DNA of 64,000 nucleotides from an uncultured Acidimicrobiia bacterium (GCA_963827075.1 CAWGZN010000002.1:54099-118098), one strand, 5' to 3'; counted from the first letter of the stretch, positions 11,197 to 46,107 are shown. Program-made: numbers and translations. The notes: generated by a model from the letters alone, not told the origin.

Positions 11197-12960
11197 TCAG
11201 ACCTGCGACGCCTTCTCGGTGAACATCTGACCGAGCGCCGACACCCGGACACCCTGGAAGCTGTTCGAGTGCCCGGAGAGGTAGTTGTAGAAGAACGGCA
11301 CGCCGATCGGGCACGTCCTCGTTCAGGATCGTCTGCAGCTTGCCGGCAGCCGCCGTCTGGGCGTCGACGCCGACGGCCTGCTGGAACTCGGTGAAGGCCG
11401 CGTCGAGCTCCGGGTTGGAGTACTGCGACGGAGTTCCAGACCCCGTTCGTCTTGAGCGCGGCGTTCAGGAACACGTCCGGCGTCGGCCGGTGCCCGTAGT
11501 CGACGATGCCCAGCTCGGCGGCCCCCGAGCACGGCGGATCGGCCGGCTCGGCCGGGCACCACTGCGCGCCGTAGAACGTGTCGAGGCTCTCGATGGCGAG
11601 CTCGAGGTTGATCCCCGCCTCGGCCGCGCCGGCCTGGATGAGCTGGGCGAGCTCGCGGGATCTCCTGCAGCTCGGCGACGTGCAGCGTGGCCTGCAGACC
11701 TTCGACGCCGGCGTCGGCGAGGAGCTGCCTGGCCATCTCGATGTCCTTGACCCGCTGCGGCGGCTGCGACGGGTCGAAGAACGGCATGAACGGGGCGATA
11801 GACGTGGTCGTTGCCGATCTCGGCCCGACCCTGGAACAACGTGTTGACCATCTGCTCGCGGTCGAGCGTGAAGGCCAGCGCCTGGCGGACGGCCTTGTCG
11901 GCGAACTGGCCGGTGTCGCAGCGCATCCAGATCTGGCGGTGGGTCGAGGATTCCACCTCGAGCACGGTGAAGTTCGGGTCGTTGAGCAGCGCGTCGCCGC
12001 CGAGGACCGAGAACTGGACGAGGGCGTCGACGGCGCCGCCCTGCATCGCCGTGACCATCGTGCCGACGTCGTCGAAGAACTGCACCTCCTGGCCGTCGAG
12101 CGGCGTCTGGCCGCCCCACCAGTCGGGGTTGCGCTCGAACGAGGCGCCGGTGGCCGGGTCGTAGCTCGCCGAGCATCCACGGCCCGGTCCCGTTGGGCGA
12201 GCCGTCGAGCGTGGTGCCGGTCTCGTAGTTGACCGGCGTGATCAGCGTCTGGGCGTTGAACACCGACACGAGGTAGGGGAAGTTGCCGTTCGGCCCCTCG
12301 AGGTTGAACACGGCCACGTTGGGATCGGTGGCGTCGACGGCGCCCTCGGCGATGACGCCCGCCAGGCCGGCGTTGTCGGCGACGACCAGCCGGTCCATCG
12401 TCGCCGCGACGTCGGCGGACGTGAACGGCGAGCCGTCGGCCTGCCACGTGACGCCCTGGCGCAGCTGGAACGTCCACACGGTGCCGTCCTCGTTCGGCTC
12501 CCACGATTCGGCCAGCCCGGGAGCGATCTCGCCGTCGTCGCCGAGCGTGACGAGGAACTCGAAGCACTGGGCGATGAGCCCGTAGGCGCCGAGGTCCTGC
12601 ATCGTCGATCGGGTCGAGGGTCGCCGCCGGCGTCTGGTAGGCGATCCTGATCGTGCCGCCCTGCTGGCCGGCGCCGGTCGTGCCGGGGGCGCCGGTGGTT
12701 CCGGGCGCGCCCGTCGTGCCAGGGGCGCCGGTCGTCCCGCTCGTTCCGCCCGGACCGGTCGTTGCGGGAGCGGAGGTGTCGTCGTCGTCATCGCCGCACG
12801 CGGCGATCACCGCGCCGATCATCGGCATCGACAGCCCGATGATCGTGCCCCGCCGGACGAAGTCACGCCGGCTGATCTTCCGGCTGGCGTACGCCTCGAT
12901 GAGATCGAGGTGGACGGGACCGACGGAACGACGAGTCCGGTCGAAGCGCTTCCAATCCAT
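11197..12960 (-). pseudogene. ABC transporter substrate-binding lipoprotein, family 5 (DppA/OppA-like), Tat signal; frame-disrupted
   Basis: N-terminus RRDFVRRGTIIGLSMPMIGAVIAACGDDDDD (twin-arginine + lipobox) followed by a (GAPGTT)n linker. Family-5 segments (VTWQADGSPFTSADVAATMDRL, ...FYGAQWCPAEPADPPC...) lie in alternating frames. There is a strong GGGGGAGGA Shine-Dalgarno sequence before the ATG at 12960. Confidence 0.8.
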
Positions 12961-19833: not shown

Positions 19834-19885
19834 CGTTCTGTCGGTCGGAAAGCGCCGAATGGCGCGTGTTCCGACCGACAGAACG
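19834..19885. repeat. Family B palindromic element, copy B1
   Basis: CGTTCTGTCGGTCGGAA-N18-TTCCGACCGACAGAACG (perfect 17-nt arms). The loop holds a second hairpin, GCGCCgaatGGCGC. It fills the gap between two convergent stops. Confidence 0.85.
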
Positions 19886-27204: not shown

Positions 27205-27324
27205 TCACCCGCTGCCGTCGACGACGATCAGCCGGCCGACCTGCGCCTCGAGTGCCCGCCGGGCGGCCTCGGGCAACTTGTCGTCGGTGACGAGGATGTC
27301 GACCTCCGAGATCGGTGCGAGCAT
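27205..27324 (-). pseudogene. 39-codon remnant of a DeoR/GlpR-family regulator C-terminus
   Basis: Translation is MLAPISEVDILVTDDKLPEAARRALEAQVGRLIVVDGSG*. It resembles the conserved end of DeoR sugar-binding domains. Its ATG overlaps the GH42 stop (ATGA) and its stop lies 1 nt before the galT ATG. Confidence 0.55.
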
Positions 27325-29346
27325 CAGTCGCCCGGCGCTTCCCGCACCACCGCGCAGCCACCGGCCTCGACCGTCAACACGCCCTCGACCGCCCGATCAC
27401 TGACCAAATCATGCCCGCTGACGCCGACCGACACGTCGGAGGATCCGTGGTTGAGGACGAACAGCCAGGAGCCGTCGGTGCCCCGGCGGCGGGTCAGGTC
27501 GATCTCGTTCGGTGAACCAGCCGGCGTCACCGCCACCGGCGGCGTCACCCCAGCCTCCGCTGTCACGCGCGCGAGCAGGCGCTCGAGCGATGCGTCATCG
27601 AGCGCGGTGGCCACGTACCACGCGACCCCGGCGTCGACTCGGCGCACCGTGATCGCCGGCACGCCGGCGAGCGGCGCCGCCGTGTGGGCCGCGACGACCT
27701 CGGCACCCTGGCCCGGTGTGAGCCGCACACGTTCCGTCCAGATGCCGGCCCGGCTGCCGTCGCTCAGCTCGACCGTCGCGTCGGCAGAAAGGGGGAAGAA
27801 CTCCTCCACCAGCACCCCGAGGAGCTCCCGGAACGCGCCCGGGTAACCGCCGAGGCGCACGTGGTCGTCCTCGTCGACGATGCCGGAGAAGTACGTGACC
27901 ACGACGTGCGCGCCGGCGGCGGCCGCGTCCGCAACCGCAGTCGCCGTGCGATCGTCGCAGAGGTAGAGCGTCGGCACGATCACGACTCGGTACGCCGACA
28001 GGTCGTCGTGTGGGTGCACGACGTCAGTCGTCACGCCCATTCCGCGCAGGACGCGGTGGTAGGCGCGGGCGGCATCCGTTCCCCGCACGAGTGAGCTCGG
28101 CAGCGACGGTGCGTTGGTCGCCCACACCGACGGCCAGTCGAAGAGCATCGGCAACGTCGGCCGCGACGGTGCTGCCGCGCAGCTCCGACAACCGGCCGAC
28201 CACGGCCCCGAGCTCGGCGACCTCGCGGAAGCGGTGGGTGTCGGCGCCGGCGTGGGGAACGAGCGCGGAGTGGAACTTCTCCGACCCCGCCTGGGCGGCG
28301 CGCCACTGGAAGAAGGCGACCCCGTCGGCGCCTCGCGCGACGTGGCCAAGGGACGTGCGCATCATCTCGCCCGGCGCCTTGGCCCGGTTCACCGGCTGCC
28401 AGTTGACCGCACTCGTCGAGTGTTCCATGAGCAGCCACGGCTGCCCGCCGGCGACTCCTCTCGTGAGGTCGGCCACGAAGGCGAGGTGGGCGAGCGGGTC
28501 AGGCAACGCCCCGAGCACGTAGTGGTCGTTGGCGACGAGATCGAGCTCGGCCGCCCACGAGAAGCAGTCGACGCTGGCCTCGTGGCTCATGATGAAGTTC
28601 GTCGTGACCGGCACCGTCGGCGTGTGCTCGCGCAACAGATCCCGCTCGGCGACGAACTGGTCGCGCAGCGTGTCGGAGCTGAACCGGGCGAAGTCGAGCA
28701 ACTGGGTCGGATTGCTGAACGTCGTGCTTCGTCCGGGCGGCTGGATCTCTTCCCAGTCGCCGTACGCCTGGCTCCAGAACGTGGTGCCCCACGCCCGGTT
28801 GAGCTCGACGAGGTCGCCGTAGCGCTGCTCGAGCCAGCGCCGGAAGTGGGCGGCGCTGACCGGGCAGTAGCACCGGGCGTTGTGGCATCCGAGCTCGTTG
28901 CTGACGTGCCACATCGTCACGGCCGGGTGCCCACCGAACTCCTTGGCCAGCCGGTCGACGAGGACGAGCGAGTGCTCCCGGTACACCGGTGAGCTCGGGC
29001 ACCACGTCTGGCGACTGCCGAGCGCGTACCGCGCGCCGCGCTCGTCGACCGGGACGATCTCGGGGTGGAGGCGAGCGAGCCACGGCGGCGGCGAGGCCGT
29101 CCCCGTGGCCAGATCGACGCGGATGTCGGCGTCGTGGAGGCGATCGAGGACGCGCCCCATCCAGTCCGGATCGAACACGCCGGGGCGGGGCTCGAGGCGC
29201 GCCCACGCGAACACGCCGACCGTCACGAAGTTGACCCCCGCCCGGCCCATCAACTCGACGTCCTCGGCCCACACCGGCTCGGGCCACTGCTCGGGGTTGT
29301 AGTCCCCGCCGAAGGCCATCCGAGGCATTCCCCACGTCGGAGCCAT
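27324..29346 (-). pseudogene. GH42-family beta-galactosidase; one frame switch
   Basis: N-terminal 400+ aa (FGGDYNPEQWPEPVWAEDVELM...MWHVSNELGCH...WLLMEHSTSAVNWQ). The C-terminal trimerisation/beta domains (...VVIVPTLYLCDD...) are in another frame, with a switch near 28140. The start is 29346, 29328 or 29319. Confidence 0.85.
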
Positions 29347-29360
29347 CCGACAATTTCTCA

Positions 29361-29412
29361 CGTTCTGTCCTGTGGCACCGACCGCATCCGGTCGATCTCA
29401 AACGACAGAACG
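29361..29412. repeat. Family B palindromic element, copy B2
   Basis: CGTTCTGTC...CGACCGcatCCGGTCG...GACAGAACG. It contains the stop codon of the HMG-CoA lyase gene and the most upstream GTG of the GH42 ORF. Confidence 0.75.
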
Positions 29413-30219
29413 GATGAAGCCGAGTGCGGCGACGAGCTCCGGGACGCTGACGCCGGTCTCGTAGCCCTCGGCTTCCAACAACTGAACCAGATGCTCGGTC
29501 GCCAGGTTGCCGCCGGCGTCGGGCGCGAACGGGGAACCGCCGAGACCGCCGAGGGCCGTGTCGAACCGGGTGACGCCGAGATCGATCGCCGTCCACGCGT
29601 TGAGCAGCGCGGTGCCGCGGGTGTCGTGGAGATGCAGCCCGACGTCGGTGCCGACGCGGTCGAGCACGGCACGCACGCGCCGCGGCGTGCCGACCCCGGT
29701 CGTGTCGGCGAGCGTGACCTGATCGACTCCGGCGGCGCGGGCGTGGTCGACGAACACGGCGATGTCGTCGGGGGCGATGTCCTCGCCGTCGAACGGGGAG
29801 CCGAAGGCGCACGAGATCACCTCGTCCAGCACCGCGTCGGGCGCGGCGGCCCGGATCGCCTCGACCTGAGCGCGCGCCTCCTCGACGGTCATGCGGACGT
29901 TCTTCTCGCTGTAGGCGGGTGAGGCCGACACGGTGATCGTGAGGTGGTCGACCCCCGCGGCGGTCGCCAGCTCGGCGCCCTTCACGTTCGGCACGAGCGC
30001 CCACACGGTCACCCCGTCCGGCACGTCGGGCAGGACGGCGGCGACCACGTCGGCTCCGCCGGCCATCGCCGGCACCGCCTTCGGCGACACGAACGAGGCC
30101 GCCTCGACGTCGCGCAGCCCGGCGGCGAGCAGCCGGCGGACGAGCTCGATCCGGTCGCCGACATCGACCGGGCGCTCCCCCTGTAACCCGTCGCGGGCCG
30201 TCACATCGCGAATCCGCAT
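29398..30219 (-). CDS. Hydroxymethylglutaryl-CoA lyase
   Basis: MRIRDVTARDGLQ...FVSPKAVPAMA...HLHDTRGTALLNAW...GGLGGSPFAPDAGGNLATE, the HMGL-like TIM barrel. The ORF extends upstream into repeat A3, but the ATG at 30219 fits the family N-terminus. Confidence 0.88.
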   Translation of the reverse strand: MRIRDVTARDGLQGERPVDVGDRIELVRRLLAAGLRDVEAASFVSPKAVPAMAGGADVVAAVLPDVPDGVTVWALVPNVKGAELATAAGVDHLTITVSASPAYSEKNVRMTVEEARAQVEAIRAAAPDAVLDEVISCAFGSPFDGEDIAPDDIAVFVDHARAAGVDQVTLADTTGVGTPRRVRAVLDRVGTDVGLHLHDTRGTALLNAWTAIDLGVTRFDTALGGLGGSPFAPDAGGNLATEHLVQLLEAEGYETGVSVPELVAALGFIRSVV

Positions 30220-30225
30220 GCATCT

Positions 30226-30309
30226 CATCCGAGTGTCTTCAGCCAATCGAGTGTCTGGTGAGGGAGGGACCCGCACAACGCACTCCGATGGCACAGAGAC
30301 ACTCGGGTG
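30226..30309. repeat. Family A element, copy A3 (84 bp)
   Basis: CATCCGAGTGTCTTCAGCCAATCGAGTGTCTGGTGAGGGAGGGACCCGCACAACGCACTCCGATGGCACAGAGACACTCGGGTG. It fills the spacer between the carboxyltransferase stop and the HMG-CoA lyase start. Confidence 0.85.
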
Positions 30310-30313
30310 AACG

Positions 30314-32089
30314 TCAGACCGGGGGGATCCCATGTCGACGGTCCGCGAAATGTCGGTTCCTTGTTCGCGCCAGGGCGAGCCGGCGGATCAGCTCGTCACG
30401 CAGCCGGGACGGGTCGATCACGGCGTCGATCACGAGCTCCGACGCCAGGCGGAGCAGGTCGACGTCGGTCTCGTACAACGCCCGCTGCTCGGCGACGAAC
30501 TGCTGGCGCTCGTCGGGGTCCTCGATCGCCGCGATCTTGTTCGCGTAGACGGCGTTGATCGCGGCCTCCGGCCCCATCACGGCGATGCGGGCCGTCGGCA
30601 GGGCGATCGTGGCGTCGGGCTCGAACGCCGGACCTGACATCGCGTACAAGCCGGCGCCGTACGCCTTGCGCACGATCACCGAGAACTTCGGCACCGTCGC
30701 CTCGCTCACCGCCGTCACCATCTTCGCCCCATGGCGGATGATCCCCTGGCGCTCGACGGCGGAACCGATCATGAAGCCGGGCACGTCGGCGAGGAAGATC
30801 AGCGGGAGATTGAACGCGTCGCAGCACCAGATGAAGCGGGCGGCCTTGTCGGCCGAGTCGACGAACAGGGTGCCGGCGAGATGGGCCGAGTTGTTGGCGA
30901 CGATGCCGACCGGCTGACCGGCGAGGCGCCCCAATCCGACGATCAGCTCGCGGGCGTAGAGCGGCTTGATCTCGAAGAAGCTGTGCCGGTCGACGATCCC
31001 GTCGATCATGACGTGCATGTCGAACGGCACCCGCTCGTCGGCCGGCACGACGTCGTCGGCGAGCTCGACCTCGGGCGGTTCGCTCTCGTACACCGGCGGT
31101 TCGTGGCGCCATGACCGCGGGAAGTACGTCAGGTACGCCCGGGCCTGGTCGATCGCGTCGTGGTCGTCGGTGGCGAGGTTGTCGGCGCAGCCCGACTGCG
31201 TCACGTGCATGCGGGCGCGATTCATGACGTGCATGTCGAACGGCACCCGCTCGTCGGCCGGCACGACGTCGTCGGCGAGCTCGACCTCCGGCGGCTCGCT
31301 CTCGTACACCGGCGGCTCGTGACGCCACGAGCGCGGGAAGTACGTGAGGTACGCCCGGGCCTGGTCGATCGCGTCGTGGTCGTCGGTGGCGAGGTTGTCG
31401 GCGCAGCCCGACTGCGTCACGTGCATGCGGGCGCCACCCATCTCCTCGAGCGTCGTGATCTCCCCGACGACCATCTCGGCCATCCGCGGCGAACCGAGGT
31501 ACATCGAGGCGTTGCCGTCGACCATGAACACGACGTCGCAGAACGACGGCACGTACGCCCCGCCGGCCGCCGACGGGCCGAACAGACAACACACCTGCGG
31601 GACCTGGCCGGACAGCCGCACCTGGTTGTAGAAGATCCGGCCGGCCCCGCGCCGCCCCGGGAACAGCTGGACCTGATCGGTCAACCGGGCGCCCGCCGAA
31701 TCGACGAGCCACACGATCGGGACCTGCTCGGCCAGCGCGGCCTCGGTCGCCCGCACCATCTTCTCGACCGTGCGGGCGCCCCACGATCCGGCCTTCACCA
31801 TCGGGTCGTTGGCGACCACGACGGCCGGCACGCCGTCGATCGTGCCCCGGCCGGTCACGACCCCGTCGGCCGGCAGCCCAGTCGCCATGGCGTTGGCCAG
31901 CACGGCGTCCTCGACGAACGACCCGGTGTCGAGGAGCAGGTCGATGCGCTCGCGGGCGGTCAGCTTGCCCTGGCCGCGGATCTTCTCCAGGGCCCGCTCG
32001 TCGGGCGTGAAGGCGCGTTGCACGGCCGCCTGGATCTGCTCGCGCATCGCCGCCAACGGTACGCGATCCTTCGTTCTGTCGGTCGCCAT
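30314..32089 (-). CDS. Acyl-CoA carboxylase carboxyltransferase (beta) subunit, methylcrotonyl/propionyl-CoA type, with internal 72-aa duplication
   Basis: Open 591-aa ORF with carboxyltransferase motifs (KLTARERIDLLLD, SAGARL, FGPSAAGGAY, FLADVPGFM.G...E..GIIRHGAKM). The residues MHVTQSGC...FDMHVMNRAR occur twice in tandem. The first 7 codons are read from repeat B3, so the start may instead be the ATG at 32047. Confidence 0.88.
   Translation of the reverse strand: MATDRTKDRVPLAAMREQIQAAVQRAFTPDERALEKIRGQGKLTARERIDLLLDTGSFVEDAVLANAMATGLPADGVVTGRGTIDGVPAVVVANDPMVKAGSWGARTVEKMVRATEAALAEQVPIVWLVDSAGARLTDQVQLFPGRRGAGRIFYNQVRLSGQVPQVCCLFGPSAAGGAYVPSFCDVVFMVDGNASMYLGSPRMAEMVVGEITTLEEMGGARMHVTQSGCADNLATDDHDAIDQARAYLTYFPRSWRHEPPVYESEPPEVELADDVVPADERVPFDMHVMNRARMHVTQSGCADNLATDDHDAIDQARAYLTYFPRSWRHEPPVYESEPPEVELADDVVPADERVPFDMHVMIDGIVDRHSFFEIKPLYARELIVGLGRLAGQPVGIVANNSAHLAGTLFVDSADKAARFIWCCDAFNLPLIFLADVPGFMIGSAVERQGIIRHGAKMVTAVSEATVPKFSVIVRKAYGAGLYAMSGPAFEPDATIALPTARIAVMGPEAAINAVYANKIAAIEDPDERQQFVAEQRALYETDVDLLRLASELVIDAVIDPSRLRDELIRRLALARTRNRHFADRRHGIPPV
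31007..31438. repeat. Tandem direct duplication, 2 x 216 bp, in-frame within the carboxyltransferase gene
   Basis: 31007-31222 and 31223-31438 align base for base. They differ at 31073, 31079, 31100, 31106, 31112, 31115 and 31130, plus the last few junction bases. ACGTGCATG occurs at both unit boundaries. Confidence 0.95.
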
Positions 32090-32123
32090 CGACCGAATCC
32101 GGCCGCTCCCGACCGACAGAACG
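32072..32123. repeat. Family B palindromic element, copy B3
   Basis: CGTTCTGTCGGTCG-N24-CGACCGACAGAACG. It lies between the FAH-family stop (32126) and the carboxyltransferase, and it contains the annotated ATG at 32087-32089. Confidence 0.85.
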
Positions 32124-32125
32124 GG

Positions 32126-32960
32126 TCAGCGGGTCACGCGGTTGACCAGCGTCCCGACCGCTTCGATCGTGATGCGGATCTCGTCCCCGACCTCGAGCGT
32201 GAACTCGTCCTCCGGTACGACGCCGGTGCCGGTCATCAGGTAGCAGCCGTTGGGAAACTCGTCCTCGCGGAACAGCCACTCGACCAGCGACGGCAGCGGC
32301 CGCCGGATGCGACTGATCGACGTCGACCCCGCGAACACCGACTGCCCGTCCCGCTCGATGGCCATCGCGATCGTGGTGTCGGGCGGCGGCAGCTCGGCGC
32401 TGACGATCAGCCGGGGACCGAGGGCTGCCGAGCCGGCGTAGATCTTGGCCTGCGGCAGGTACAGCGGGTTCTCGCCCTCGATGTCGCGGCTCGACATGTC
32501 GTTGCCGATCGTGTAGCCGAAGATGGCGCCCGCCGAGTTGACGGCGAGCGTCAGCTCCGGCTCGGGGACGTTCCAAGCCGAGTCGCCGCGGATGCGCACG
32601 TCCCCTCCCGGCGCGGCGACGCGGTGGGGCATCGACTTGAGGAACAGCTCGGGGCGCTCGGCGTCGTACACGCGGTCGTAGAACGAGCCACCGCCCGCGT
32701 CGCTCGACTCCTCGATGCGCGCCTCGCGGCTGCGCTCGTAGGTCACGCCGGCCGCCCACACCTCCTGGGACGCGATCGGGGCGAGCATCGACGACGGGAC
32801 GCCCGCGATCTCCTCACCGGCGGCGAACGCCTCGCGCGCCGCGCCGACTGGATCCGGCGACCGGAACAGATCGTCGAGCGTGAAGTCGCGCACGCGCCCG
32901 GACGACCCGACCCCCGTCCTCGATCACGAGGCCGTCAGCCGTGAGCGTGAGCGCGGTCAA
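32126..32960 (-). pseudogene. Fumarylacetoacetate hydrolase (FAH)-family protein; one frame switch near the 5' end
   Basis: The 255-aa ORF shows family features (VWAAGVTYERS, PELFLK, EPELTLAV, GYTIGNDMSSRD, MTGTG). The likely N-terminus LTALTLTADGLVIEDGG is in another frame from a TTG at 32960, with a TTGA overlap onto the permease stop. Confidence 0.75.
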
Positions 32961-33818
32961 CCGCGGACCGCCCCCGAGGCGAGCCCGCTCACGATCTGAC
33001 GCTCGGCGAAGACGTAGAACACCAGCGCCGGCACCATCGAGAGCGACGTGAACGCGAGCACCCGCGCCGTGTCCGACGAGTACTGCGTCGAGAAGTTGGT
33101 GACGCCGAGCGGCAGCGTCCACAGATCAGGGTCGCTGAGCACGATCAGCGGTAGCAGGAAGGCGTTCCAGCTGGTGACGATCACGAGGACCGAGACCGTA
33201 GCGAGCACCGGCCGCGAGAGGGGCATGACGATCGTCCAGAAGAAGCGGAACGAACCGCACCCGTCGATCGCCGCCGCCTCCTCGAGCTCGGCCGGGATGC
33301 TGCGGAAGAACGGGCGCAGCACGATGATCATCGTCGGCAGGGCGAACGCCGCCTGGGGGAGAGCGACGCCGAACCAACTGTTGATCAGGCCGAACGTCCG
33401 CAACGAGATGAACAGCGGCAGGATCGCCACGGCGACCGGGAAGAGCAGCCCGAGGGTGAAGAAGATGTACACCACTTCCCGCCCCTTGAACGAGAAGCGG
33501 GCGAGCACGAACGCCGCCAGCGACGCAGCCGGGACGACGACCGCCATCGTGATCGCGGCGATCAGGACGCTGTTGCGGACCTGTCGCCAGAACGTGCCGG
33601 ACGTGATGATCTCGCGGTAGTTCTCGAAGACCCACGGGTCGGGCAGGTCCACCGGCTGAGCCGAGATCTGCCCGGTCGTGCGGAACCCGCCGAGGACGGC
33701 GTAGATCATCGGGACGAGGACGACCAGGACGACCCCGATGGCGATGGCGTACATCACGACCCCGGGACAGCGTCCGGCGCATCGGGCGGCTGCGCACCAC
33801 GGGGGCGGCGATCACCAT
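32957..33818 (-). pseudogene. Carbohydrate ABC transporter permease (MalG/UgpE-like); one frame switch
   Basis: 266 aa are intact with the EAA loop (PAELEEAAAIDGCGSFRFFWTIVMPLSRP). The first ~20 codons from the ATG at 33818 are in another frame. There is an ATGA overlap with the upstream permease. Confidence 0.85.
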
Positions 33819-34758
33819 CAGACGGCGCCCATCCTCGTCAGTGCGCCCTGGACGTCGCGGCGCAGGACGAAGCGCTGATAGGCGAGCGCGATCACGAAGC
33901 AGAGCGAGAACACGATCACGGCAACGGCGCTGCCGTAGCCGAAGCGCGAGCGCTCGAAGCCGCGGTCGATCATGTACACGGCCATCGTGTTGGACGCGTT
34001 GACCGGGCCGCCGCCGGTCATCACCCACACCAGGTCGAACAGCTGCAGCGACCCGATGATCGACAGGAACACCGAGATCCGGATGGTCGGGCCGAGCAGC
34101 GGCAGGGTCACGTGGCGGAACGTCTTCCACTTGGTCGCCCCGTCGAGCGCCGCCGCCTCCTCCAGCTCGCGCGGGATCTGCTGCAGCCCGGCGAGGTACA
34201 GGATCATGTGGAACCCGAAGTACTTCCACGTGACCACGACGAAGACGGTGTAGAGAACGACGTCGGGGTTGGCCAGCCACTCCTGCGGAGAGCCCGCCGA
34301 GACCGATCGCGTCCAACGTGCTGTCGGCCAGCCCGTTGGGCTGCAGCAGCAGCCGCCACACGACCGCGGTGATCACCTCGGACAGCACGTACGGGAGGAA
34401 GAAGAGCAGCCGGAAGACCGCCCGGCCGCGGATCCGTTGATTGAGCAGCACCGCGAGCCCGAGGGCGAACGGCAGCTGGAGGATGAGCGACAGGACGAGG
34501 ATCAGGAAGACGTGCCGGATCGAGGCGAGGAACACCGGGTCGGAGAGCGCCTCGCGGTAGTTGTCGAGCCCGACGAAGTCGGTGAGCGGGGCCAGACCGT
34601 TCCAGTCGAAGCCGCTGTAGTAGATGCCCTGGACGATCGGCACGAGCACGAACAGCACGTACAGGAGCGACGCGCCGGGAGCAGGAACAGGACGATCGTC
34701 GTGCGTTTCCGCCACGCCGCCCCGACCCGGCCCTGGCCGCGCCCGCCGGCCGGAACAT
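33818..34758 (-). pseudogene. Carbohydrate ABC transporter permease (MalF/UgpA-like); frame-disrupted
   Basis: The C-terminal 139 aa are intact (PRELEEAAALDGATKWKTFRHVTLPLLGP). N-terminal segments (LLYVLFVLVPIVQGIYYSGFDWNG...FFLPYVLSEVITAVVWRLLL) lie in another frame. Switches occur near 34740, 34680 and 34290. Confidence 0.8.
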
Positions 34759-34766
34759 CCGTGCCC

Positions 34767-36242
34767 TCAGAAGAGCTGGGCGGCGGGCCGTAGGGAGCGG
34801 CCCGCCGCTCGATCGAGGCGGTCGCGCCGCTCAGGCCCTCGCGGCATCCGCGATCGTCTGGGCCACCTGCTCCGGCGGAGGCCTGCCCGGCGTAGAGCTC
34901 CGCCACCGCGTCGTTGATGACCGCGCCGAGCTCGGGCGGGTACGCCTGGTCGAGGTAGAGCTGCACGTACGACGCGTCGGCCCGGGCGTCGAGCACGCCC
35001 GTCAGGTTCGGGTCGGTGATCGAGCCGTCGGCGCCGATCGTGACGGGCAGGATCCCGCTGTTCGTCTCGCCCCACCGGTTGGCGACGTCGAGGCTCGTCG
35101 CGTACTGGAGGAAGTCGACGGCCTCGGGCGGAGCGTCCTTGCCGACGGCGAACCCGTTGCCCCCGCCGAAGACGTCGGTCGGCGCACCGGCGCCGCCCTC
35201 GACGGCCGGGAACGGGAACCAGCCGAGCTTGTCGCCGAGGCCCTCGCCGTCGGGCGAGTTGGCGTTCTGCGTGCCCGGCGCCCACTGCCCCATCAGGTGC
35301 ATCGCCGCGCCCTCGGTCGCGATCGTCGCGGCCTGCCCGCCGGCACCGTCCCACACGGCCGCCATGAAGCCGTCCTGGAACGGATCCATCTCGACCAGGC
35401 GCTGGAGCTCGGCGCCGGCCTGGACGAACGGTTCGGAGTCGAACGAGCCGTCCTCGCCGGCCTGCAGCATGGCGTCGGGTCCGCCGATGCGCAGCGCGAG
35501 GTACGCCCACCAGAACATGCCCGGCCACTTGTCCCCCTCGCCGAGGGCGAGCGGCGTGATCCCGGCGTCCTTCAGCGTCTGGACGTCCTCCAGGAACTCC
35601 TCCCACGTGGCCGGCGGGGCGTTGATCCCGGCCTGCTCGAACAGGTCCTTGTTGTACCAGAACCCGACCATGCCGAGATCGAACGGGATCCCGTACTGCA
35701 CGCCCGTCGACCTGGTACATGCCGACCGCCGCCTCGTTGAGGTCGCCGATCCAGGGCTCGACGTCGTCGGTGATGTCGCGGACCAGCCCGGCGTCGACCT
35801 GCTCCATCAGCCCGCCGCCGCCCCACGACTGGAAGAGGTCGGGCGGGTCGCCGGCCTGCAGGCGCGGGCGCGATCGCCGTCTTGAACGCCTCGTTCTCGT
35901 AGACGGTGATGTCGATCGTGACGTTCGGGTGCTCCGCCATGTACTCGTCGGCGACGTCCTGCCAGAGCGAGAGACCGGGGTCGTTGTTCTGGATGTGCCA
36001 CCACTCGATCTCGACCGGCTCGCCGGAGTCCGGGGCCTCCGTCGCCGGGGCTTCGGTCGCCGCGGGGGCTTCGGTCCCCGGGGCTTCGGTGGCCGGCGCT
36101 CGGTGGCCGGCGCGTCGGTCGCCGCGGGGGCGTCGGATGCCGGCGGGGCGGCGTCGTCATCGTCATCGTCGCCACCGCACGAGGCGGCGACGAGCGCGAA
36201 GGCGCCGAGCAACAGGGTGGTGCGAGCGAGCCGACGACGCAT
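34767..36242 (-). pseudogene. Carbohydrate ABC transporter substrate-binding lipoprotein (family 1); frame-disrupted, 3' end uncertain
   Basis: MRRRLARTTLLLGAFALVAASCGGDDDDDD lipobox, then a (T/A)EAP(A/G) linker. The segments EIEWWHIQNNDP, LQAGDPPDLFQSWGGGG and a 300-aa block (YGIPFDLGMVGFWYNKDLFEQAGI...) lie in three frames. Confidence 0.8.
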
Positions 36243-36315
36243 GATCGAGTCCCCCTTGTGAGCGTGCGAGAGCGGTCCCGCCGCCGAGCGTGGCACAGCC
36301 CGCGAGGCGTTGTCA

Positions 36316-36338
36316 ATCGTTATCGATATCGTTATCGA
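36316..36338. promoter_or_regulatory. Candidate operator: tandem 11-bp direct repeat ATCGTTATCGA-T-ATCGTTATCGA
   Basis: It is the only AT-rich, internally repetitive sequence in the 129-bp divergent region between the sugar SBP gene and the LacI gene. It is flanked by TGTCA/CGACA. Confidence 0.4.
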
Positions 36339-36371
36339 CACCGATCTACAGCGCGAGAGTATGCTCGCCCG

Positions 36372-37382
36372 GTGTCGCGCCGTCGAGTGACGATCGGGGA
36401 CGTGGCGGCCGAGGCCGGGGTCTCGATCGCCACCGTGTCGAAGGTGATCAACGATCGCTACGGCGTCGCCCCCGACACGTTCAGCCGGGTCAAGGCCGTG
36501 ATCGCCGAGCTCGGCTACGAGTCCAGCCTCGTCGCCCGCAGCCTGCGCAGCCGGCGCACCAACGTGATCGGCATCCTCGTCGCCGACATCGAGCCGTTCA
36601 GCGCCGAGCTGCTCAAGGGGGCGGCCGCGGCGATCCGCGGCAGCGACTACGAGCTGATCGTCTACTCCGGCAGCGGCCACGGCAAGGAGCACTCCGGCTG
36701 GGAGCGCCGCAACGTCTCCCGGCTGAGCGGCACGCTCACCGACGGGATCATCCTCGTCACCCCGACGGTCGACGACGTCGGGGACGCCGGGGTGATCGTG
36801 GCCGTCGACCCCCACGCCGGGCCGTCGAGCCTGCCGAGCGTGCACTCCGACAACCTCGCCGGCGCGATCACGGCGACCGAGTACCTCATCGGGCTCGGTC
36901 ACCGCCGCATCGGCTTCCTCGCCGGCCGGCCCGACCTGGAGTCGGCCCGGCTGCGCGAGCAGGGCTACCGCGACGCGCTGGCGGCCGCCGGCATCCCGTA
37001 CGACCCGGAGCTCGTCCGGGTCGGCGAGTACGAGCTCGAGACGTCGGAGGAGCCGGCCCGCCAGCTGCTCGAGCTCGCCGAACCGCCGACCGCCATCTTC
37101 GCCGCCAACGACCTCTCGGCGATCCAGACGATGAACGTCGCCCGCTCGCTCGGCCGGTCGGTGCCCGGTGATGTCTCGGTGATCGGGTTCGACAACATCC
37201 CGGAGTCCGCGCTCACCGAGCCGCCGCTCACCACCATCGACCAGTCGATCCAGCGGATGGGCCGCGAAGCCGTCGAGCTGCTCATCGACCTGATCGAGGA
37301 GCGCACCACCGAGCGTCCGGAGCAGATCACACTCCCGACCCGGCTCGTCGTCCGCCAGTCCTGTCGCCCGATCGCTCCATGA
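36372..37382 (+). CDS. LacI-family transcriptional regulator
   Basis: VTIGDVAAEAGVSIATVSKVINDRYGV HTH followed by a periplasmic-binding-protein-like domain. It is intact. The GTG start is at 36372 or 36387. Confidence 0.9.
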   Translation: MSRRRVTIGDVAAEAGVSIATVSKVINDRYGVAPDTFSRVKAVIAELGYESSLVARSLRSRRTNVIGILVADIEPFSAELLKGAAAAIRGSDYELIVYSGSGHGKEHSGWERRNVSRLSGTLTDGIILVTPTVDDVGDAGVIVAVDPHAGPSSLPSVHSDNLAGAITATEYLIGLGHRRIGFLAGRPDLESARLREQGYRDALAAAGIPYDPELVRVGEYELETSEEPARQLLELAEPPTAIFAANDLSAIQTMNVARSLGRSVPGDVSVIGFDNIPESALTEPPLTTIDQSIQRMGREAVELLIDLIEERTTERPEQITLPTRLVVRQSCRPIAP

Positions 37383-45751: not shown

Positions 45752-46107
45752 TTAGATGCCGAGCAGCTTGGCCTTGGCGGCGGCGAACTCCTCGTCGGTG
45801 AGGATCCCCTGCTGCTTGAGCTGAGCGAGCCGCTCGAGCTCGGCGATCGGGTCCGGTGCCGCGGCGGGCGCGGCCGCTTGTTGCGCGGCGGCCTGCTGCG
45901 CGGCGGCCTGCTGGGCGGCGGCGTCCATCGCGGCCTGCTGCTGCTCCTGCTGATAAGCCTGGGCGTCGGCGGCCTGCTGTGCTTTCGCCTGCTGGCGGTG
46001 GCTCACGCCGCCGACGACCGCCGTGGCCGTGCCGGCGACGACGGCAGTGCGGGCCGCCGTGCCGATCAGGCTGGGCCGGCCGACCCGACCGATTCCGCGT
46101 CTCATCA
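45752..46107 (-). CDS. SHOCT-domain protein with Gln/Ala-rich low-complexity linker
   Basis: MMRRGIGR... with a GAGGAG Shine-Dalgarno sequence upstream. The C-terminus is ELERLAQLKQQGILTDEEFAAAKAKLLGI (SHOCT). The (AAQQ)n stretch lies at about 45880-45960. Confidence 0.7.

Follow-up and report, generated by a model that had tools for sequence, protein, structure and literature searches.

An in-frame 216-nt tandem repeat with allele-like silent differences in an Acidimicrobiia carboxyltransferase gene: a probable product of long-read assembly

The carboxyltransferase gene and its neighbours

The window analysed here is the whole of a 64-kb stretch of DNA from an uncultured Acidimicrobiia bacterium. 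On its minus strand, the longest carboxyltransferase ORF (30314-32089) comprises 591 aa. Judged by its sequence matches, this ORF encodes the carboxyltransferase (beta) subunit of an acyl-CoA carboxylase. The Pfam profile Carboxyl_trans (PF01039) matched with E = 9.2e-171 and 569 bits, against a cut-off of 22.3, in two stretches that are broken at the duplication described below. Significant matches to proteins of solved structure were to PccB (3ibb/1xnw, E ~1e-101), AccD1 (4q0g, E = 2e-98), and MCC-beta (3u9r, E = 7e-85); AccD5 was also among the solved homologues matched, the range of E-values being about 1e-101 to 1e-85. The protein resembles these members of PF01039 in that the match extends over the full length of both crotonase-fold halves. 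The sole noteworthy NCBIfam match for the carboxyltransferase, mmdA, scored 442 bits, far under its cut-off of 998.8.

Orthologues of the carboxyltransferase start at MREQI, which corresponds to the ATG at 32047. The deposited gene call uses a TTG start at 32056 and gives a protein of 580 aa (entry P0133 of the protein collection). The 14 extra N-terminal codons of the longest ORF are spurious; they are the arm of an intergenic hairpin at 32072-32123. A second copy of this near-perfect hairpin element, with arms CGTTCTGTCGGTCGG / CCGACCGACAGAACG, is located at 19834-19885, and each copy follows a minus-strand gene, beginning 3 nt past its stop codon (...CGCTGA + hairpin). As RNA, the copies at 32072-32123 and 19834-19885 are predicted to fold with energies of -43.6 and -55.5 kcal/mol (z = -4.6 and -9.4). 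Five occurrences of the arm motif were counted in the window, where 0.8 would be expected, and 82 related loci contained none. The element could represent a terminator or be REP-like and intergenic.

The gene order around the carboxyltransferase matches that in relatives (Table 1 lists the features of the locus). Because the downstream HMG-CoA lyase-like gene overlaps the carboxyltransferase stop, the two genes probably form one operon. The presence of this neighbour, a likeness to leucine-catabolic clusters, hints at leucine catabolism. The overlap between the carboxyltransferase stop and the longest lyase-like ORF is 20 nt long (30314-30333), compared with 4 nt in the relative L081, and suggests translational coupling or a later true start of the lyase.

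Table 1. Coordinates of the genes, repeat copies, and junction elements in the window.
Feature	Coordinates	Strand	Remarks
GH42 beta-galactosidase	27324-29361		split between two overlapping ORFs, one with the catalytic domain and the other with the M and C domains
HMG-CoA lyase-like gene, downstream	29398..30333	-	Pfam HMGL-like E = 1.7e-34; NCBIfam PRK05692 248 bits, cut-off 246
Acyl-CoA carboxylase beta subunit (carboxyltransferase) gene	30314..32047	-	577 aa from the conserved ATG 32047
C-terminal-side repeat copy (A292-M361)	31006..31218	-	G, G, A, C, A, A, C at the variable positions
58-nt patch with all seven silent differences	31073..31130	-	counterpart in the other copy 31289-31346
Junction, three novel bases 'gat'	31219..31221	-	no in-register match to either flank; read from the sequence itself
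N-terminal-side repeat copy (A220-M289)	31222..31434	-	third positions that vary read C, C, G, T, G, G, G on the coding strand
ACGTGCATG 9-mer, MHV codons	31011..31019; also 31203-31211, 31227-31235, 31419-31427		inside the units
FAA-hydrolase-family gene, upstream	32126..32893	-	Pfam FAA_hydrolase E = 7e-16
ABC-transporter permease	33818-34715		in frame only at profile positions 60-181
Sugar-type solute-binding protein	34502-36902		in frame only at profile positions 105-302

The repeat and its junction

Tandem Repeats Finder reported a two-copy tandem repeat with a period of 216 nt at 31006-31434 (96% matches, 0 indels, score 809), and a separate repeat finder recovered the same pair. This is the sole repeat with a period of at least 40 nt in the 64-kb window, and it is far beyond what chance would produce. 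An initial annotation of the window had described a 216-bp in-frame tandem duplication in the carboxyltransferase; the period and the intact ORF bear this description out. In a base-by-base comparison, 213 nt align (31006-31218 versus 31222-31434) with seven mismatches, at positions 31073, 31079, 31100, 31106, 31112, 31115, and 31130, all within 58 nt. These are the seven clustered silent changes that had been annotated: each falls at codon position 3 of the minus-strand gene and is synonymous (L, R, S, R, E, E, P, with the codon pairs CTC/CTG, CGC/CGG, TCG/TCA, CGT/CGC, GAG/GAA, GAG/GAA, and CCG/CCC). The register first assigned to the units, 31007-31222 versus 31223-31438, preserves the period but yields ten mismatches instead of seven, the last three at the border.

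The identical repeated peptide is 70 residues long (A220-M289 and A292-M361, in the numbering of the 591-aa ORF), where 72 had been annotated, and the junction contributes a new N-R. Inside the unit, the patch is flanked by identical stretches of 66 nt on one side, as annotated, and of 88 nt (rather than 86) on the other. The patch encodes the linker ...LTYFPRSWRHEPPVYESEPP... that joins the two crotonase-fold halves. In an alignment with Streptomyces coelicolor PccB, the repeat unit corresponds to approximately residues 227-301; it runs from the final helices of the N-terminal half through the variable linker and includes the first helix of the C-terminal half. No member of the carboxyltransferase family examined, solved or in the databases, repeats this segment.

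Elsewhere in the window, imperfect tandem repeats of short period (15-36 nt) were observed in GC-rich coding sequence, at 36030-36143, 12670-12739, and 45868-45944. The one at 36030-36143 is located in the N-terminal low-complexity linker of a solute-binding lipoprotein (signal peptide ...LVAASCGGDDDDDD...).

The sequence spanning the junction of the two units is CATGAATCGCGCC. On the coding strand, the join reads CATGA[A]TCG/CGCCCGC, or in longer context ...ATGCACGTCATGA[A]TCG/CGCCCGCATGCAC..., with the slash at the join; the native sequence downstream is CATGATCGACGG, and the native sequence upstream is GGTGGCGCCCGC. The join amounts to a 215-nt duplication plus one extra A in an A run, and the shared microhomology is at most 1 nt. 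The junction bases create two new residues, N290-R291 (...FDMHVM-NR-ARMHVTQ...).

The 9-mer ACGTGCATG had been placed at the unit borders in the initial annotation, as the footprint of a microhomology-mediated duplication. Its copies are internal to the units, two in each, and are spaced 192 nt apart; they therefore do not explain the 216-nt period and would have given one of 192 nt. The MHV codons are already found twice in the native protein. The junction falls in the 15 nt between the second and the third occurrence of the 9-mer, and does not lie within a short direct repeat shared by both ends of the duplicated segment. The junction is not as expected for slippage between direct repeats. 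It is compatible with an end-joining-type event, or else with two concatenated sequences whose seam was left unpolished; the near-zero microhomology and the extra base in the A run suit an unpolished join better than slippage.

Relatives, contig quality, and structure model

In a protein search, the duplication was absent from the 120 best-scoring of 8000 homologues scored, which were either about 505 aa long or frameshift fusions, and it was absent from the 13 closest proteins when these were aligned. The best 80 loci kept from a scan of GTDB species-representative genomes also lacked it. Four further contigs, bringing the related loci to 84, each gave two alignment pieces overlapping by one unit, which is the mark of a single copy in that contig, and none contained the duplication. 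No duplication was found in the members of the gene's own 90% cluster or of five neighbouring clusters; the sequences of the over-long members (P0187, P0148, P0151, and P0198) were read, and the duplication was absent from these as well. The nearest relatives found (L082, L084, L083, L008, and L006) have 92-94% DNA identity to the window, and all are single-copy. When one unit is removed from the window's protein, 505 aa remain, the exact length of nearly all close orthologues. The expectation that orthologous beta subunits would be about 72 aa shorter was thus confirmed to the residue, at 505 aa versus 577 aa from the conserved start.

The JGI metagenome contigs contained no match to the degenerate junction pattern MHVMNRARMHV and no match to either allele of the 58-nt patch; these contigs therefore provide no independent support for the duplication and no single-copy sighting of either allele. 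An evolved repeat would be expected in related genomes or in independent samples, and it was present in none of the homologues and loci examined.

Three of the eight neighbouring genes are frameshifted, all within 5 kb of the repeat (the beta-galactosidase, the permease, and the solute-binding protein in Table 1). The Pfam domains of these three genes carry on in another reading frame, and the broken neighbours indicate an indel-rich consensus and not pseudogenes. The source contig is a 161,904-nt record in NCBI and ENA. Its closest genomes are Microflora Danica MAGs, whose records are named 'contig_N'. The Microflora Danica MAGs were assembled from nanopore reads only, using Flye --meta and one Medaka round (PMC12313526). 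We infer that the window comes from the same kind of nanopore/Flye assembly. Neither the window nor 554 kb of related loci, many of them from the same project, yielded another tandem duplication with a period of at least 60 nt.

Orthologous carboxyltransferase genes on long ENA contigs are often frameshifted or fused to the downstream HMG-CoA lyase gene (examples of frameshifted orthologues are P0047, P0040, P0043, P0045, P0187, P0148, and P0151), and gene calling broke the carboxyltransferase of L083 into small pieces. The confirmed 'contig_N' records of the Microflora Danica type are L081/L008 (P0047), L083, and L084; the others were assigned by ENA source and long contigs only. The frameshifts in the relatives' orthologues and those in the window belong to the same class of error.

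The 577-aa protein was modelled with AlphaFold2 using an alignment of 108 homologues, which consists entirely of gaps over the extra unit. The model therefore speaks to the place of the insertion and says little about whether the insertion folds or is tolerated. The initial annotation had asked where the 72 additional residues would sit; in the model, they are at a surface-exposed domain boundary, directly after the EEMGG motif. The C-terminal unit occupies the native position with pLDDT >90. Residues 200-281, which form the N-terminal unit, are unstructured with pLDDT 21-33, and the conserved segment preceding them (a strand) drops to pLDDT 47-48.

Origin of the repeat

The probability that 7 of 7 changes would be silent under unconstrained divergence in place is 3e-5 to 1e-4, and the clustering of the seven silent sites in 20 of 70 codons has p = 0.0015. 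These values uphold the earlier remark that neither a fresh nor a decaying duplication predicts such a pattern; the seven differences cannot have accumulated as unconstrained mutations after the duplication. The differences between the window and L082 are scattered over the whole unit, and 6 of about 15 alter the amino acid; the patch is thus not a mutational hotspot. Sequencing errors were rejected as the source of the seven differences, which are all silent substitutions at polymorphic sites; the contig's errors elsewhere are indels. A paralogue as donor of the patch, proposed in the initial annotation, was likewise rejected: the window contains no paralogue, and in the PccB alignment the patch encodes the least conserved linker of the family, so that only a near-identical orthologous allele could have given 20 codons without an amino-acid change.

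The seven sites are ordinarily polymorphic among relatives. Each copy has derived states of its own: three G-to-A changes in one and a single C-to-T change in the other. The differences, being silent and patchy, look like those between alleles, unlike sequencing error or decay. Both copies share the T in MHVTQ and the V-M in MHVM, which most relatives lack; these lineage-specific residues make the two copies each other's closest relatives. From the sequence, the two units appear to be two orthologous alleles of one lineage and not the outcome of post-duplication divergence, and this much is common to all viable readings. In the simplest reading, two diverging strains acquired the differences at a time when each had the segment as a functional single-copy gene, and the two versions were later placed next to each other. 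One of the strains probably carried a short imported recombination tract, since the patch is locally 12% divergent.

On balance, we consider the tandem arrangement of diverged units to be a likely, though far from certain, product of long-read metagenome assembly or polishing, in which two strain alleles were written in tandem; we think that the arrangement as written exists in no single genome. The units would be strain-level alleles of a normally single-copy segment in a 505-aa beta-subunit gene. The assembler may have concatenated two haplotypes of a locus that varies between subpopulations, in which case the junction would be without read support. Alternatively, the draft may have followed a minority read carrying a fresh, identical duplication, and reads of the more abundant single-copy strain would then have overwritten the 58-nt patch in one copy during polishing. 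According to a survey of long-read metagenome assemblies, assemblers at times join subpopulation-specific variants of one locus end to end; the survey also describes contigs built on a minority variant and duplications with zero supporting reads (bioRxiv 10.1101/2025.04.22.649783). Concatenation of two strain alleles by the assembler was one of three readings in the initial annotation, and the indel-rich assembly and this published precedent make it the best fit of the three.

An origin in assembly or polishing accounts with a single cause for the repeat itself, its allele-like patch, its odd junction, and its uniqueness, in an assembly that is demonstrably error-prone. We counted in its favour that removing one unit restores the orthologue length of 505 aa, that every orthologue examined is single-copy, and that the contig is indel-rich and has nanopore-only relatives. 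In the haplotype concatenation of Trigodet et al., slightly different versions of one locus likewise follow in succession in a mixed population, with a spurious extended ORF, in an assembly rich in indel errors. However, their cases were found through read clipping in PacBio HiFi and are mostly longer, whereas the repeat described here is 216 nt long, in frame, and was found from the sequence only. Other points argue against an artefact: the unit is in frame, which an artefact would give one time in three; published false duplications are mostly longer than 216 nt; and no specific Flye or Medaka failure mode was found to account for the exact structure. The lack of further long-period duplications argues against a frequent systematic artefact, although that screen says little in either direction about this repeat.

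An unlikely but not negligible alternative is a real tandem duplication whose units truly come from two strains. This joint assessment covers two variants. DNA from a related strain may have integrated through homologous recombination on one side and illegitimate recombination or end joining on the other, or one unit of a fresh duplication may later have received a short tract by recombination with a related strain. Either way, the protein would carry a 72-aa insertion where its two domains meet, and the enzyme may or may not still work. The allele-like differences agree with such a history, as do the in-frame unit and the intact ORF amid a frameshift-rich contig, yet it requires a rare combined event or two rare events in the same 216 nt. 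End joining and illegitimate recombination yield small untemplated insertions with little microhomology, and actinobacteria often have Ku/LigD; the small untemplated insertion and near-zero microhomology at the junction are in keeping with this. The rest of the gene has about 96% protein identity to P0001 despite 6-7% DNA divergence, which argues for normal purifying selection and against an old pseudogene. On the other hand, two direct repeats that are perfectly identical over 66 and 88 nt should recombine away fast unless selected, and no relative or independent sample examined has the repeat. The low pLDDT of the extra unit and the lowered strand before it also count against a real duplication, weakly, as the alignment does not cover the extra unit.

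Spontaneous RecA-independent, short-junction intragenic duplications in bacteria resemble the repeat in being head-to-tail, in frame, and confined to one lineage. Duplications of that type start out as identical copies, and their junctions usually fall at short direct repeats; the repeat in the carboxyltransferase, in contrast, has an allele-like silent patch and a junction with at most 1 nt of homology and an inserted base. We consider it rather improbable that the duplication is real and kept in a living Acidimicrobiia population, having arisen through a single inter-strain event, homologous and end-joined, with an enzyme that tolerates or exploits the insertion.

An older duplication, with purifying selection on both units and gene conversion homogenising the flanks, is very unlikely, and it is the least likely of the three readings in the initial annotation. 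The seven silent and zero replacement changes and the identical flanks could be accommodated, but the patch differs by 12% from copy to copy versus about 7% between either copy and L082, and all relatives at 90-94% DNA identity are single-copy. The native fold position fits only one unit, so that equal constraint on both would be unexpected, and it is ad hoc to assume conversion that homogenised 66 and 88 nt yet left the intervening 58 nt untouched. Duplication by slippage or microhomology at the ACGTGCATG 9-mers, whether or not a paralogous carboxyltransferase supplied the patch, is contradicted by the sequence and hardly credible: the 9-mer does occur four times, but its spacing of 192 nt inside the units does not match the period, the junction with its novel bases lies between two 9-mers, and a paralogue would have brought amino-acid changes into the most variable linker. 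A small remaining share of the probability, slightly above that given to an older duplication, is left to causes that we have not thought of.

The repeat is real in the sequence and is most probably no biological feature; the protein deposited at 580 aa probably represents a mis-assembly of an ordinary acyl-CoA carboxylase beta subunit of 505 aa. If the repeat is an artefact, then an in-frame tandem repeat with allele-like silent differences would be a recognisable signature of haplotype concatenation in long-read MAGs, and the in-frame repeat pattern would be usable as a quality-control flag. If it is real, the understanding of carboxyltransferases would be unchanged, and the repeat would be a modestly interesting inter-strain recombinant duplication at a domain boundary in a conserved enzyme, showing in nature how recombination between strains makes such duplications.
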